NCBI GenBank assembly: GCA_964642545.1
Contig: CAZXQU010000003.1
Location: 22,443 to 86,442 of the forward strand
Direction of reading: 5' to 3'
Length of the DNA stretch: 64,000 nucleotides
DNA from: an uncultured Prolixibacteraceae bacterium
GTDB taxonomy: Bacteria > Bacteroidota > Bacteroidia > Bacteroidales > FEN-979
Part shown: positions 58,992 through 61,323 of the stretch, piece by piece
How positions within the stretch are numbered: the stretch's first letter is position 1
How the letters are laid out: each line of letters begins with the position of its first letter
The notes under the pieces: generated by a model
Database searches by the model: none
What the model saw: only the letters and a program-made list of their open reading frames with translations
What the model was told of the DNA's origin: nothing
Made by a program: the position numbers and the translations under genes

Positions 58992-59621
58992 TAACGCTTT
59001 GATTACCTCCTTAAATTCACTGAGAATCATAGCAGTAGCTCCCCAGATAACATATCCGTTCACGACAAAAGCAGGTGCCTTTATTTGAATACCAACTCCT
59101 ATTCTGTGCTTTGTTACCTGTAATGCAGTATCACTAAAAAGGTCACGAATCTTTAGTTCAATGATCTCATCCACTTCAGATGGATCTTTTATAAAATCAG
59201 GCCTTTGGATGCTATAGCCCACAAAAGGAGAGACAAGAAACCTGCTCGGCGGAATGTAGAGATCCGACAATTTCCCAAGAATCCGGACCTCCTCAGGAAT
59301 AATTCCAACCTCCTCATTGGATTCACGCAAGGCAGTGTCGGTTAGATTGAAGTCTTCGGGTTCTCGTTTGCCTCCTGGAAGACTGATCTGGCCAGAATGA
59401 ACTCCTTGATAATCGGGACGTTGAATAAATACTATATAGATGTCTTTACCAATAGGATATAACAGTAATAACACGCTGCTGGGTTTCGCTTCTGGCGATG
59501 GGACAGATCCCGTTAATTCCTGAATCCGCTTCATCGACGACATGCGAAGCTGAGCTTGCATACCGGGGAGTGGTCGCGATAAGGCCTCTGAAATTGATGC
59601 TATGAAATGTTCGAAAGGCAC
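58986..59621 (-). CDS. Nudix hydrolase (CoA pyrophosphatase-like)
   Basis: Contains the Nudix box GGKREPEDFNLTDTALRESNEEVGI. Confidence 0.8.
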   Translation of the reverse strand: MPFEHFIASISEALSRPLPGMQAQLRMSSMKRIQELTGSVPSPEAKPSSVLLLLYPIGKDIYIVFIQRPDYQGVHSGQISLPGGKREPEDFNLTDTALRESNEEVGIIPEEVRILGKLSDLYIPPSRFLVSPFVGYSIQRPDFIKDPSEVDEIIELKIRDLFSDTALQVTKHRIGVGIQIKAPAFVVNGYVIWGATAMILSEFKEVIKALL

Positions 59622-59697
59622 AGGAATAAATATTTTGCCAAAAATACAATATGCTCATGAAAAAATTAGTATACTTGTGCTTTCCAAGCTTACAACG

Positions 59698-59973
59698 ATG
59701 GTTAAAGAGAAAGTTAAACCTGTTGAAAGTCAAGATGATTTGGCTCAGAATGCAAGCCAGATAATTTTGTTTAATGATGATGTCAACTCTTTCGATTTTG
59801 TAATCGAAGTGCTAGTTGACGTTTGCCAGCATGCCCCCATGCAGGCTGAGCAATGTGCCTGGATTGCTCATTACAAAGGAAAATGTGGGATAAAGGAGGG
59901 ATATTTCTCTGAACTGAAACCACTGTACGATGAAATATGCAACAGAGGATTGACAGTTTCAATTGAGAAATGA
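59698..59973 (+). CDS. clpS: ATP-dependent Clp protease adaptor ClpS
   Basis: ILFNDDVNSFDFVIEVLVDVCQHAPMQAEQCAWIAHYKGKCGI is ClpS-like. The start is at the 59698 ATG. Confidence 0.85.
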   Translation: MVKEKVKPVESQDDLAQNASQIILFNDDVNSFDFVIEVLVDVCQHAPMQAEQCAWIAHYKGKCGIKEGYFSELKPLYDEICNRGLTVSIEK

Positions 59974-60054
59974 ACAGGTTATTAATATCTTATTAACCCC
60001 TCTTTTTCTTACACTACTCAAAACTCTTATAATCTGTATTTTAATCTCAAGTGA

Positions 60055-60077
60055 GTTATTAACAATTTGTTAATAAC
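60055..60077. promoter_or_regulatory. 23-nt perfect inverted repeat GTTATTAACAA-T-TTGTTAATAAC
   Basis: The 11-nt arms were checked by hand. It lies 82 nt after the clpS stop and 63 nt before the -7 box at 60140. It could be the clpS terminator hairpin or an operator. Confidence 0.4.
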
Positions 60078-60139
60078 AGTTGTTGATTTCATGTGAATAT
60101 AAATCAATCAAATTTATTGACTTCCTATTTCGCATAGTG

Positions 60140-60147
60140 TATATTTG
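60140..60147 (+). promoter_or_regulatory. Bacteroidota -7 promoter box (TATATTTG) in front of the GC-rich RNA candidate
   Basis: Exact TAnnTTTG match. The composition jumps from AT-rich to GC-rich about 10 nt downstream. Confidence 0.5.
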
Positions 60148-60154
60148 CTATCGC

Positions 60155-60460
60155 AAGTGAGGGATAAAAGGCCCTCTGAGAAGTTGGGGATGTGAAAGCA
60201 GTATCCGTAAGGTGACAGCACTCCAGAACCAAGCCTGAACAAAGGTGAATCCGCAAGATTCACTCGGATAGCAGGTCACATAATCAGGGCGCTCCCGATG
60301 CCGGCTTCCGCAAGGGAGATTGGAACGGAGAGCGGGACGGGAAGAAGGGGTAACCCGGAGAATCGTCAGCCACAATAACCGTAGCTTGACACACCAGGTG
60401 GCCACGGCCGCTTGGATGTAGGATGGGAATTCTGTCGGACAGACGGGGTTCCCATCACGG
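60155..60460 (+). ncRNA. candidate structured non-coding RNA, class unassigned
   Basis: No credible ORF on either strand. G+C is 39/60 in 60301-60360 versus 12/60 in 60061-60120 (hand counts). GNRA-capped hairpins lie at 60245-60263 (loop CGCAA), 60301-60323 (GCAA) and 60336-60367 (GUAA). An end-closing helix pairs 60157-60164 with 60450-60458. The boundaries are approximate. Confidence 0.5.
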
Positions 60461-60567
60461 TTTATTGCTGAACTTTTGCAGAAATATCAATGGTTCCATC
60501 TTCTTCCTGCTGGTTTCAAATCATTTGCCATTTTGGGTATTATTATCTGAAACTGCTGATTTTTTCT

Positions 60568-61323
60568 CTAGAGGATAAAAGGGATCAGCGCTTTTCTTTT
60601 TGAAGGATAACCAGGAAATGTAGATTGATACCATCGGTGATGATGCAATGCTCTCGGCAGAAGATTTACCAATGTCCAAACAGCAAATGCAAGTGCAGGA
60701 GTGCACCATGTCATCATCGCAAACCCAAACCACTCAATGATCTCACTGAAATGGTTCGGACAGGAAATATAGTTGAATAACCCTTTCTGAGGAATAAAAT
60801 ACCCTGTTTGACCTGGTTTTCTTAAATGGATCAGGATGTTATCAGATTGCCAGTTAATTGCCATTCCACTCAGAAACATAACCATACCGATAATAAACCG
60901 GGGATCTGTAAGCCATGATATTGGGTAGGAGGCAAGAGAACCAAGGTAATAGCCATTGATAAAACCATTGACAAAATTGAATCCCAATGCCATAAATACA
61001 ATTGCGAGTGGCATTTTCTTTCCTTTGGTCCTTAGTCGGAAAGGGAAAATAACGGTTCTGTTAATATAATGAAACACCCATAAACCGAAAAAGATCCATG
61101 TTACTACATTGTGTTTTGAAGAACCAAATAGGAAAAGACCTGCAAAGACAAGAAGGGAAGGGGATTCCATAATAATCCAACCGAGTTTGTTATTGATCAG
61201 CGCTCCCCATTGTTTGGTCGTATGACGCCCATAGGGTGCTGTGATATGCAGGACGATTGGAAAAATCACCAGCGCTATTGCAATCCACACATATACAATG
61301 AAATAAAACGTAGAATTACTCAT
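60568..61323 (-). CDS. steroid 5-alpha-reductase / polyprenol-reductase-family membrane protein
   Basis: 251 aa with 6-7 TM helices. The C-terminal block YISCPNHFSEIIEWFGFAMMTW is typical of the 3-oxo-5-alpha-steroid 4-dehydrogenase family. Confidence 0.75.
   Translation of the reverse strand: MSNSTFYFIVYVWIAIALVIFPIVLHITAPYGRHTTKQWGALINNKLGWIIMESPSLLVFAGLFLFGSSKHNVVTWIFFGLWVFHYINRTVIFPFRLRTKGKKMPLAIVFMALGFNFVNGFINGYYLGSLASYPISWLTDPRFIIGMVMFLSGMAINWQSDNILIHLRKPGQTGYFIPQKGLFNYISCPNHFSEIIEWFGFAMMTWCTPALAFAVWTLVNLLPRALHHHRWYQSTFPGYPSKRKALIPFIL

Follow-up and report, generated by a model that had tools for sequence, protein, structure and literature searches.

The stretch of DNA analysed here (the window, 64,000 nt) contains a 594-nt gap between clpS, which ends at 59973, and a Steroid_dh gene on the minus strand, which ends at 60568. 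As a sequence-only reading of the window had described, this AT-rich gap has a GC-rich core, and the G+C counts it gave (39/60 at 60301-60360 versus 12/60 at 60061-60120) are exact. The RNA described below has 55% G+C, the remainder of the gap 26-34% and the window 44%. The -7 box TATATTTG lies precisely where it had been placed, at 60140-60147. Conservation around the RNA is limited to 60137-60463, bounded by the promoter and the terminator, and the nhmmer family match spans 60152-60465; the RNA was found in 18 of 18 syntenic loci.

Positions 60153-60463 (plus strand) very probably encode a free-standing noncoding RNA of ~312 nt, highly folded and independently transcribed, that represents an undescribed Bacteroidota family. 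The gene is a conserved unit on the plus strand, and the lack of an Rfam match, the bounded conservation and the covariation all uphold the earlier proposal of a structured plus-strand RNA with its own promoter and no assigned class. The exact ends of the RNA are predicted from sequence signals.

59978..59996, strand not assigned: weaker second palindrome copy GTTATTAATATCTTATTAA, ~77 nt upstream of the first
60055..60077, strand not assigned: 23-bp perfect AT-rich palindrome GTTATTAACAATTTGTTAATAAC, candidate operator or upstream activating site
60117..60147, plus: Bacteroidota-type promoter, TTG at 60117-60119 (within TTGAC) and -7 box TATATTTG at 60140-60147, both invariant in relatives
60153..60463, plus: RNA, ~312 nt, with 5' end predicted from promoter spacing and 3' end from the terminator
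60154..60158, plus: P1, 5' strand CAAGU, pairs with GCUUG at 60384-60388; in the unconstrained minimum free energy (MFE) fold
60159..60169, plus: core internal loop, 5' strand GAGGGAUAAAA (consensus RAGNGAUAAAA), nearly invariant in short and long forms
60170..60172, plus: P2, 5' strand GGC, pairs with GCC at 60369-60371
60174..60289, plus: domain closed by P2a (60174-60179 with 60284-60289) and containing P3-P6
60184-60195 with 60222-60232, plus: P3 (consensus fold, MFE)
60198-60206 with 60211-60219, plus: P4, GUAA loop (consensus fold, MFE)
60233-60237 with 60272-60276, plus: P5 (consensus fold, MFE)
60244-60251 with 60257-60264, plus: P6, CGCAA loop (consensus fold, MFE)
60290-60297 with 60326-60334, plus: P7, enclosing P8 (60301-60309 with 60314-60323, GCAA loop) (fold and covariation)
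60336..60367, plus: P9, apical GGG-GUAA-CCC (60347-60356) supported by covariation, outer GACGG/UCGUC stem predicted, purine-rich internal loop
60368..60388, plus: 3' strands of P2 and P1 with the loop strand AGCCACAAUAACCGUAGCUUG between them; AAUAACNGUARCUUG nearly invariant family-wide
60391..60419, plus: P10 hairpin, CACG loop (UACG in most members), stem 60394-60402 with 60407-60415 (covariation)
60422..60466, plus: P11, intrinsic terminator, stem 60422-60436 with 60442-60456, then ACGGUUUAUU (fold and U-run)

Fold and conservation of the RNA

The plus strand folds with an MFE of -124 kcal/mol (z = -3.94; 0 of 100 shuffles equal), whereas the minus strand does not stand out clearly from its shuffles (z = -1.12). 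Every consensus helix is already present in the unconstrained MFE of the window RNA. All complementary segments listed in the sequence-only reading exist, and comparative data favour its hairpin at 60244-60264 (drawn at 60245-60263), the nested helices 60290-60297/60326-60334 and 60301-60309/60314-60323, GGG-GUAA-CCC at 60347-60356, the hairpin at 60394-60415 and the terminator hairpin at 60422-60456. Its other pairings fared less well: TATCCG and CGGATA are complementary at long range but only 41.5% of cells are paired, and comparative support is lacking both for the local GAGGG/CCCTC hairpin at the 5' end and for the proposed 5'-3' closing helix GTGAGGGA/TCCCATCAC (GTGAGGGA/TTCCCATCAC). The actual closure is CAAGU/GCUUG, 60154-60158 with 60384-60388.

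The RNA had been called an orphan, which it is not. Searches of Bacteroidota genomes and metagenomes returned more than 130 family sequences across the phylum, comprising 124 unique homologues with both conserved ends and 8 further loci. Homologues were recovered by pattern scans and nhmmer, which yielded 106 full-length matches (80 unique) and more than 45 long forms; 7/96 genome and 6/67 metagenome pattern hits (e.g. Deefgea, Nitrosopumilaceae, Bergeyella, Anaerolineales) were chance matches. Family members measure about 250-620 nt. Some 78 homologues have ~312-335 nt and ~45 have 380-625 nt (e.g. Algoriphagus, Mariniphaga, Rikenellaceae), and the window member is a short form. Carriers include Bacteroidales-type metagenome-assembled genomes (MAGs), Cyclobacteriaceae, Saprospiraceae and one Chlorobiota MAG. 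The RNA also occurs in the complete genomes OY781040.1 and OY820914.1 and in cultured Algoriphagus, where A. aquatilis, A. lacus and A. terrigena have the ~610-nt form, and a Draconibacterium orientale copy was recovered from a MAG.

All members have in common an invariant core that the sequence-only reading missed, made of CAAGY/RCUUG, the loop GAUAAAAGG/AAUAACNGUA and a covarying P2. In long and short forms, P1 (CAAGY/RCUUG) and P2 (GGY/RCC) flank an asymmetric loop in which RAGNGAUAAAA lies opposite AYAAUAACNGUA; 3' of this core come a tetraloop hairpin and then a terminator hairpin with conserved sequence. The interior is multi-branched and variable, capped by GNRA loops (mostly GCAA), and ranges from ~130 to 500 nt between members, only the two-end core being conserved. 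It has been expanded or trimmed by lineage.

Helix support was measured by counting pairs on MAFFT alignments against shuffled or slid controls, a count that ignores kinship. For 79 short forms and 78 consensus pairs, 82.6% of cells are paired versus 72.8% in shuffled and 30-48% in slid controls; 63 of the 78 pairs changed on both sides, and the covariation score reaches 0.33, against 0.18 for shuffled and 0.06-0.12 for slid controls. For the core fold, taken over 29 long forms and the window, pairing amounts to 91.1% (27-49% when slid). By these pair counts 11-12 helices are supported, and some of those drawn earlier failed. P1 is paired in 96.7% of cells (column 8/268: UG 33, CG 20, UA 13), and in the long forms one of its pairs went from AU to GU five times and from AU to GC once. 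P2 is 98.3% paired, its third pair being CG 37, UA 23, UG 15 and GC 3; in the long forms it has 5 bp with pair swaps. The complementarity of P2a is kept by very different sequences, and its own duplex has an energy of -9.4 kcal/mol versus -5.5 kcal/mol for the cross-pairings. All 15 pairs of helices 8 and 9, in the P7/P8 region, changed on both sides, as did 11/12 pairs of P10 (7/8 in long forms). P5-P9 are 61-74% paired and partly misaligned in the MAFFT alignment. The P11 stem AUGGGAA/UUCCCAU is conserved throughout the family, with 95.9% of cells paired.

A pseudoknot between the P10 loop (UACGG) and CCGUA of the core was rejected by eye because no compensating changes link the loop variants (CACG, UAAG, UCCG) with the variable N. 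A mutual-information scan for additional long-range pairs was dominated by clade effects.

Promoter, upstream palindrome and gene context

The sigma-A promoter consensus of Bacteroidota consists of TTTG at -33 and TAnnTTTG at -7. Across the family, the end of TAnnTTTG lies 5-7 nt upstream of the C of CAAG in 117/122 unique members, and in 116 of those 117 a TTG lies 12-30 nt upstream of the -7 box, as expected of a sigma-A promoter. At the other end, the GC-rich hairpin at 60422-60456 is followed by the U-run ACGGTTTATT, which makes it an intrinsic terminator, and a run of at least four T marks the RNA 3' end in 110/122 members.

The 23-bp palindrome occurs at one site in 64 kb (0 expected). 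Its start lies 98-100 nt before the 5' CAAG in ~100/118 unique members, short and long forms included, and all 129 palindrome sites in 1.29 Mb of loci are upstream of an RNA copy. Additional TGTnnAT-like half-sites follow it in the window (TGTTGAT at 60081-60087, TGTGAAT at 60092-60098), and sites like the second, weaker palindrome are found at -175 to -177 in several close relatives. The LexA of Bacteroidetes (XRE-HTH/S24) binds GGA-N5-TCC or CTAA-N5-TTAG, with the diverged form TTAC-AAATT-GTAA (PMC8565304). A dyad-N5 arrangement of this kind is also seen in the upstream palindrome (TAAC-AAnTT-GTTA), whose arms are not identical to those of LexA sites; the likeness is one of layout. It lies ~88 nt upstream of the RNA start, an unusual position for a repressor, and LexA-like and SRAP genes are found near some long forms only.

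No constant neighbour gene that might give a functional clue was found across short- and long-form loci. The short form keeps strict synteny with clpS, NUDIX and reductase genes, and a local role in that clade is therefore conceivable. In ~63/78 short-form loci clpS is encoded on the same strand as the RNA and lies ~180 nt upstream of it. In the short-form loci the next gene downstream is convergent, no same-strand gene following the terminator. Long forms are in unrelated contexts without clpS, and Mariniphaga has tandem copies, each with its own promoter. Relatives carry beside the RNA an additional gene of 292-316 aa that was lost from the window, where a remnant persists at 60461-60531, outside the RNA.

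Known RNA families and alternative explanations

The RNA family matches no catalogued family and is absent from Rfam 15. With 4227 models, cmscan gave no match at E<=1 with permissive filters over 59500-61000; at gathering score it gave none at the RNA in the whole window (only tRNAs or noise) and none for the RNA in 18 homologous loci, and at E<=10 there was none in the 612-nt Algoriphagus copy. RNase P RNA (RF00010/RF00011, including the P4 core CR-I/CR-V) was not detected at E<=1 or in the 18 loci, nor were the tRNA-like domain and tag frame of tmRNA by ARAGORN or Rfam; ARAGORN found 0 tRNA or tmRNA genes at the RNA. Rfam matches to 6S RNA (RF00013, RF01685) and 6S-Flavo were likewise lacking, and the fold is multi-branched with 11-12 helices. 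No model of OLE, ROOL, GOLLD, HEARO or raiA matched either, whether in the window at E<=1 or, at E<=10, in the Algoriphagus form of 612 nt. Searches of plasmid and phage collections (blastn) and IMG/VR (pattern scan) gave no match, and a search of open-access literature text, exact sequence strings included, found no description of the RNA. Novelty is judged here against Rfam and this open-access literature.

The large 'ornate' noncoding RNAs (raiA motif, OLE, ROOL, GOLLD) are Rfam families of unknown function studied by cryo-EM (PMC12286853). The present RNA resembles them in being stand-alone, noncoding and several hundred nt long, with many covarying helices, abundant GNRA tetraloops, highly conserved internal loops and no evident target in cis; a promoter and a terminator of its own are a further point in common with raiA. 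It differs in lacking any sequence or structure match to them and in belonging to Bacteroidota, whereas they occur mainly in Firmicutes and Actinobacteria. GOLLD and ROOL are associated with phages, and the present RNA has no phage or viral association; OLE has oapA, and the present RNA has no constant partner gene. With 6S and Ms1 it has in common independent transcription and two ends paired around a large conserved internal loop, and it is likely to be stable, highly expressed and regulated. Unlike their one long irregular hairpin, it is multi-branched, with a closing helix of only 5 bp and two added hairpins 3' of it. In Y RNA and YrlA, too, 5' and 3' segments pair into a conserved module around a variable interior, but no Rfam match links them to the present RNA, which is much larger and more structured, and neither rsr (Ro) nor rtcB is among the recurrent neighbours.

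A strongly diverged known RNA (RNase P, 6S, tmRNA, SRP, OLE, ROOL, GOLLD or raiA) that escapes the covariance models would be typical in size range, own promoter and terminator, core built from distant segments and GNRA-rich layout. We consider this very unlikely, given 0/4227 Rfam models matching at E<=1 (window) or E<=10 (Algoriphagus), the absence of a tmRNA call by ARAGORN, a multi-branched shape with two hairpins 3' of the closing helix that is unlike 6S, and no copies on viral contigs, unlike GOLLD and ROOL. RNase P, tmRNA, SRP and 6S of Bacteroidota are, moreover, normally detected by standard models. The same-strand position ~180 nt downstream of clpS in most short-form loci might suggest a processed 3' UTR, or a small RNA derived from the 3' end, of that gene. 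As an alternative to an independent gene this is highly improbable: the promoter is at a fixed distance in 117/122 copies, conservation falls between clpS and the promoter (the palindrome excepted), long forms dispense with clpS and tandem copies carry separate promoters. It is still harder to credit that the locus is conserved DNA and not an RNA gene, such as the remnant of a lost protein gene, a small ORF on the antisense strand, a site bound by protein or part of a mobile element. The antisense ORF at 60148..60405 (85 aa) is present, and in 58/78 short forms an antisense frame runs for 80 aa or more without a stop; such a frame is expected because that strand is pyrimidine-rich. The ORF, earlier taken for nonsense, has no Pfam match and no codon periodicity (substitutions 0.196/0.166/0.216), and the length of 91% of indel runs is not divisible by 3, which rules it out as a gene. 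Compensatory changes preserve RNA helices, the remnant of the adjoining lost gene lies outside the RNA, and there is usually one syntenic copy per locus; flanking repeats are absent, as are matches to plasmids, phages or viruses.

A cis-acting switch had also been proposed, in which UUCCCAUCAC would pair either with the 5' end or with GAUGGGAA, gating the terminator in response to a ligand such as c-di-AMP. GUGAGGGA is indeed complementary to UCCCAUCAC in the window and the sequences closest to it, the stem of the terminator shows unusual sequence conservation, and column 9/343 is paired in 91% of sequences (GC 42, AU 21, GU 9). The 21 A-U cases in that column are one clade, and five independent lineages with A in column 9 keep a mismatched C in column 343. 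The middle pair of the closing helix (column 12/339) forms in only 12/79, column 8/344 fails in 34/79, and a G at the variable position is found only in the window's own clade. The three-way competition of end helices is thus without independent compensatory support, and against it stand the terminator helix paired at 95.9% and the short-form loci that lack a same-strand gene to regulate. The ydaO-like block on which the ligand was based is the 3' strand of the family's own core loop (CCACAAUAACCGUAGCUUG); its likeness to ydaO-yuaA is confined to a short sequence resemblance (GAAUC..GUCAGC..CGUAGC), and neither ydaO-yuaA (RF00379) nor any other riboswitch matches at E<=1 over 59500-61000. Unlike ydaO-yuaA, the RNA is outside any 5' UTR: in the window and the short-form loci it is followed by its terminator and then a convergent gene. 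A switch of this kind appears most unlikely.

Possible role of the RNA

On the best reading, this is a new class of structured RNA, free-standing and regulated, that would act in trans; the mechanism given here is a prediction. Transcription would start from its own sigma-A-type promoter (TTG, then TATATTTG), at or within 1-2 bases of CAAG, and end at the intrinsic terminator. A transcription factor acting as a dimer, or else a nucleoid protein, would bind the palindrome and so set the level of expression. The RNA would act in trans as a folded particle and not as a cis-regulator of a neighbour; its invariant core would be the functional site, at which either a conserved partner (protein or RNA) binds or catalysis takes place, and the GNRA-capped interior may serve as scaffolding.

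That this is an undescribed RNA class, whatever its function, is probable. A bolder and less likely reading takes it as a phylum-wide new class in which the near-invariant core (P1, the RAGNGAUAAAA/AAUAACNGUA loop, P2 and the conserved 3' hairpin) is a putative active centre and the operator would switch the gene on; the centre could belong to a novel ribozyme, or lie at the core of a novel assembly, either a ribonucleoprotein or one made of RNA alone. Novelty is claimed at the level of the RNA family, not of mechanism.

Large bacterial RNAs with complex folds are rare (RNase P, tmRNA, OLE, GOLLD, ROOL, raiA), and each has pointed to unusual biochemistry. The present family adds more than 130 representatives with a core invariant over that depth, an interior resized between ~250 and 620 nt in total length and a private upstream palindrome, and its 312-nt short form lends itself as the minimal construct for solving the structure. 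The classical RNA-biology proteins Hfq, ProQ and CsrA are, to our knowledge, missing from Bacteroidota, and little has been learned about noncoding RNAs in this phylum, so that a conserved, structured and probably regulated RNA offers a concrete way in.

Position, fold and catalogue searches

The element occupies the gap between clpS and a convergent gene for a Steroid_dh/DUF1295 protein (hereafter the reductase), and we conclude that it is a real feature. Its immediate surroundings in the window are as follows.

59602-59973, plus strand: ClpS, ORF upstream of the element
60422-60456, plus strand: terminator-like hairpin, with ACGGTTTATT directly 3' of it
60568-61323, minus strand: Steroid_dh/DUF1295 protein, ORF downstream of the element

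The G+C content of the element is 55% (173/314), compared with 26% and 34% in the parts of the gap on either side. The sequence-only reading had counted 39/60 G+C at 60301-60360 and 12/60 at 60061-60120, and had placed a promoter box (TATATTTG) at 60140-60147; coordinates and counts are exact. The plus strand of 60150-60470 folds at -124 kcal/mol (z = -3.94), a value equalled by 0 of 100 shuffles, and the minus strand of this interval gives z = -1.12. Without constraints, the minimum free energy structure of 60153-60466 (-121.9 kcal/mol) already has P1, P2 and P2a together with all consensus helices described below.

Searches with cmscan against all 4227 families of Rfam 15 gave no match at E<=1 on 59500-61000, none for the element at gathering score over the whole window, and none at the homologous loci of the family. 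The ydaO-like resemblance suggested earlier is not borne out, because no Rfam match was obtained at E<=1. ARAGORN identified neither a tRNA nor a tmRNA in the element, blastn against plasmid and phage collections returned no match to it, and a scan of 2.9 million viral contigs found zero copies. No description of this RNA was found in the searchable open-access literature. The main proposal, a structured plus-strand RNA with its own promoter and no assigned class, was right.

Family extent and genomic neighbours

Via proteins related to the neighbouring reductase we reached 18 syntenic loci in uncultured Bacteroidales/Bacteroidota assemblies. The element lies downstream of clpS in 18/18, at 68-88% nucleotide identity, and the conserved stretch is bounded by promoter and terminator (window 60137-60463). 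Two different exact patterns from invariant blocks were then run, one over species-representative genomes (96 stretches, 7 of them chance matches) and the other over metagenomes (67 stretches, 6 by chance). With nhmmer, 106 full-length copies were recovered (80 unique, 312-335 nt), and at ~60 further loci the match was limited to the 3' ~100 nt. Nearly all of these partial matches have the 5' motif YCARGYRAGNGAUAAAAGG 375-615 nt upstream of the terminator; thus the window RNA is the family's short form, alongside long forms of ~380-625 nt. Both ends are present in 124 unique sequences, and 8 more loci were found by pattern.

MAGs carrying long forms are labelled Rikenellaceae, Prolixibacteraceae, Mariniphaga, Tenuifilaceae, Chitinophaga or Chlorobiota, and cultured Algoriphagus species also have them (~610 nt); one Saprospiraceae MAG has a ~250-nt form. 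The RNA belongs to a Bacteroidota-wide family without representation in Rfam 15. This RNA class is widespread and undescribed, which makes the element more interesting than was proposed from the sequence.

Two full members are on contigs binned outside Bacteroidota. The copy in an Alphaproteobacteria-labelled MAG (L083, SACF01000013.1) is probably on a mis-binned contig, and that in a Chlorobiota-labelled MAG (L032) may be genuine because Chlorobiota is a sister group phylum. Tandem long forms of ~550 nt, ~1 kb apart with AT-rich spacers, are present in a Mariniphaga MAG (L101:1-3432, JANXZJ010000072.1), with at least 3 copies up to the contig edge and a promoter for each of the 2 complete ones; another uncultured Mariniphaga locus (L053) has two tandem long-form copies. 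The motif ACCGCAGAARUGC occurs three times inside the 612-nt form of Algoriphagus aquatilis (L024:5928-6540, minus strand), which suggests internally repeated modules in long forms.

A coding role and a cis-regulatory role were both considered and rejected. A long antisense open frame is expected because the strand is pyrimidine-rich; substitutions show no codon periodicity, and 91% of indel runs have lengths that three does not divide. In about 64/78 loci the short form has clpS ~180 nt upstream on the same strand and the convergent reductase gene on its other side. The neighbours of long forms differ (SRAP, an XRE/S24 LexA-like gene, carboxylase subunits, a beta-lactamase-like gene), and none is constant among these loci.

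By eye, an SRAP (SOS-response-associated peptidase) gene adjoins the RNA in 19 long-form loci (e.g., L021, L106 and L045), and an XRE-HTH/S24 LexA-like gene, likewise identified by eye rather than by profile search, lies ~2 kb upstream in 8. Lineage synteny could explain this proximity, or it may hint at a DNA-damage link. In many relatives a gene of 292-316 aa, with a lipoprotein-like N-terminus and no Pfam match on record, lies between RNA and reductase (L001:3866-4762, L003:3848-4759, L010:4880-5758, L011, L012 and L018). The window and L006-L009 and L013-L017 are without it; in the window, short remnants of the gene's 3' end can be aligned at 60461-60531. In L006 (3468-4511) and L007 (3447-4490) the recorded gene call merges NUDIX into a 347-aa product that crosses the opposite-strand clpS place of relatives, probably through an over-extended start and not a real clpS loss.

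Conserved core and comparative support for helices

RNAalifold and averaged pair probabilities on an alignment of 79 short-form sequences gave 12 helices. In P1, CAAGY at the 5' end pairs with RCUUG ~230 nt downstream (60154-58 with 60384-88), and in P2 GGY pairs with RCC (60170-72 with 60369-71), its third pair being CG in 37 sequences, UA in 23, UG in 15 and GC in 3. They flank an internal loop that hardly varies, with RAGNGAUAAAA on one strand and AYAAUAACNGUA on the other; these sequences are presumably similar to loop-E/bulged-G and UAA/GAN-type tertiary motifs. This core is the key structural feature, was missed by the sequence-only reading, and is the sole part common to long and short forms.

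Over the 78 pairs counted, pairing is possible in 82.6% of cells, compared with 72.8% after shuffling and 30-48% with partners slid; the covariation score is 0.33 versus 0.18 and 0.06-0.12, respectively, and 63/78 pairs show two-sided changes. For 29 long forms plus the window, pairing in P1, P2, P10 and P11 reaches 91.1%, against 27-49% with partners slid; P1 shows A-U to G-U or G-C changes, and a P2 of 5 bp shows swaps. The long-range helix P2a (60174-79 with 60284-89), which MAFFT misaligns, keeps complementarity although its sequences differ considerably (-9.4 kcal/mol for own duplexes versus -5.5 kcal/mol for cross-pairings).

Among the helices drawn earlier, comparative data support the CGCAA hairpin (P6), the nested pair P7/P8, the 60394-60415 hairpin (P10) and the terminator (P11); for P9 the support is for the GGG-GUAA-CCC tip. 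The TATCCG/CGGATA pairing fails, with 41.5% of cells paired and the CC of TATCCG belonging to the P4 hairpin. The proposed three-way switch is without comparative support, because GAGGG/CCCTC and the 5'-3' closing helix do not hold across sequences: in the former, 2/5 pairs form in only 11-12 sequences, and the latter requires G at a variable position where only 12/79 have it. One pair of the closing helix (column 9/343) apparently covaries; its 21 A-U cases all come from a single clade, and C at column 343 persists in five independent lineages that have A at column 9.

Promoter, upstream palindrome and possible function

Among unique copies, 117/122 have a TAnnTTTG box whose end is 5-7 nt upstream of the CAAG cytosine, with TTG 12-30 nt further upstream in 116 of the 117, and in 110/122 the terminator is followed by four or more consecutive T. 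We also identified an AT-rich palindrome of 22-23 bp (consensus GTTATTAACAA(N)TTGTTAATAAC) starting 98-100 nt before CAAG in about 100/118 copies. The perfect site in the window and a weaker copy are as follows.

60055-60077, no strand given: AT-rich palindrome GTTATTAACAATTTGTTAATAAC, perfect over 23 bp and ~100 nt before the start of the RNA
59978-59996, no strand given: weaker second copy, a further ~77 nt upstream; present in the window's clade

Its position is the same in short and long forms, irrespective of neighbouring genes; Algoriphagus copies are without it. The 64-kb window contains a single such palindrome, where 0 are expected even with three mismatches allowed, and 129/129 sites in 1.29 Mb of fetched loci are upstream of an RNA copy. 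Two TGTnnAT-like half-sites lie downstream of it. Bacteroidetes LexA-type operators (CTAA-N5-TTAG, TTAC-AAATT-GTAA; PMC8565304) have a similar dyad-N5 layout but different arms. The palindrome is a candidate binding site for a regulator, and its centre near -88 would fit an activator or architectural protein more readily than a repressor. Just upstream of it, ATCTCAAGTGAG (60044-60062) echoes the first bases of the RNA, ATCGCAAGTGAG (60150-60168), at 79% identity; the echo is probably chance, because it is absent from the other loci inspected.

The element is a conserved, strand-specific RNA gene under structural constraint, equipped with a promoter and a terminator of its own and with a private site upstream. 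We anticipate that the RNA would act in trans as a folded particle, with the invariant core as its functional site, the GNRA-capped interior as scaffolding that lineages would have enlarged or trimmed, and the palindrome controlling its expression. It may serve as an RNP scaffold, a protein or RNA sponge, or a ribozyme.
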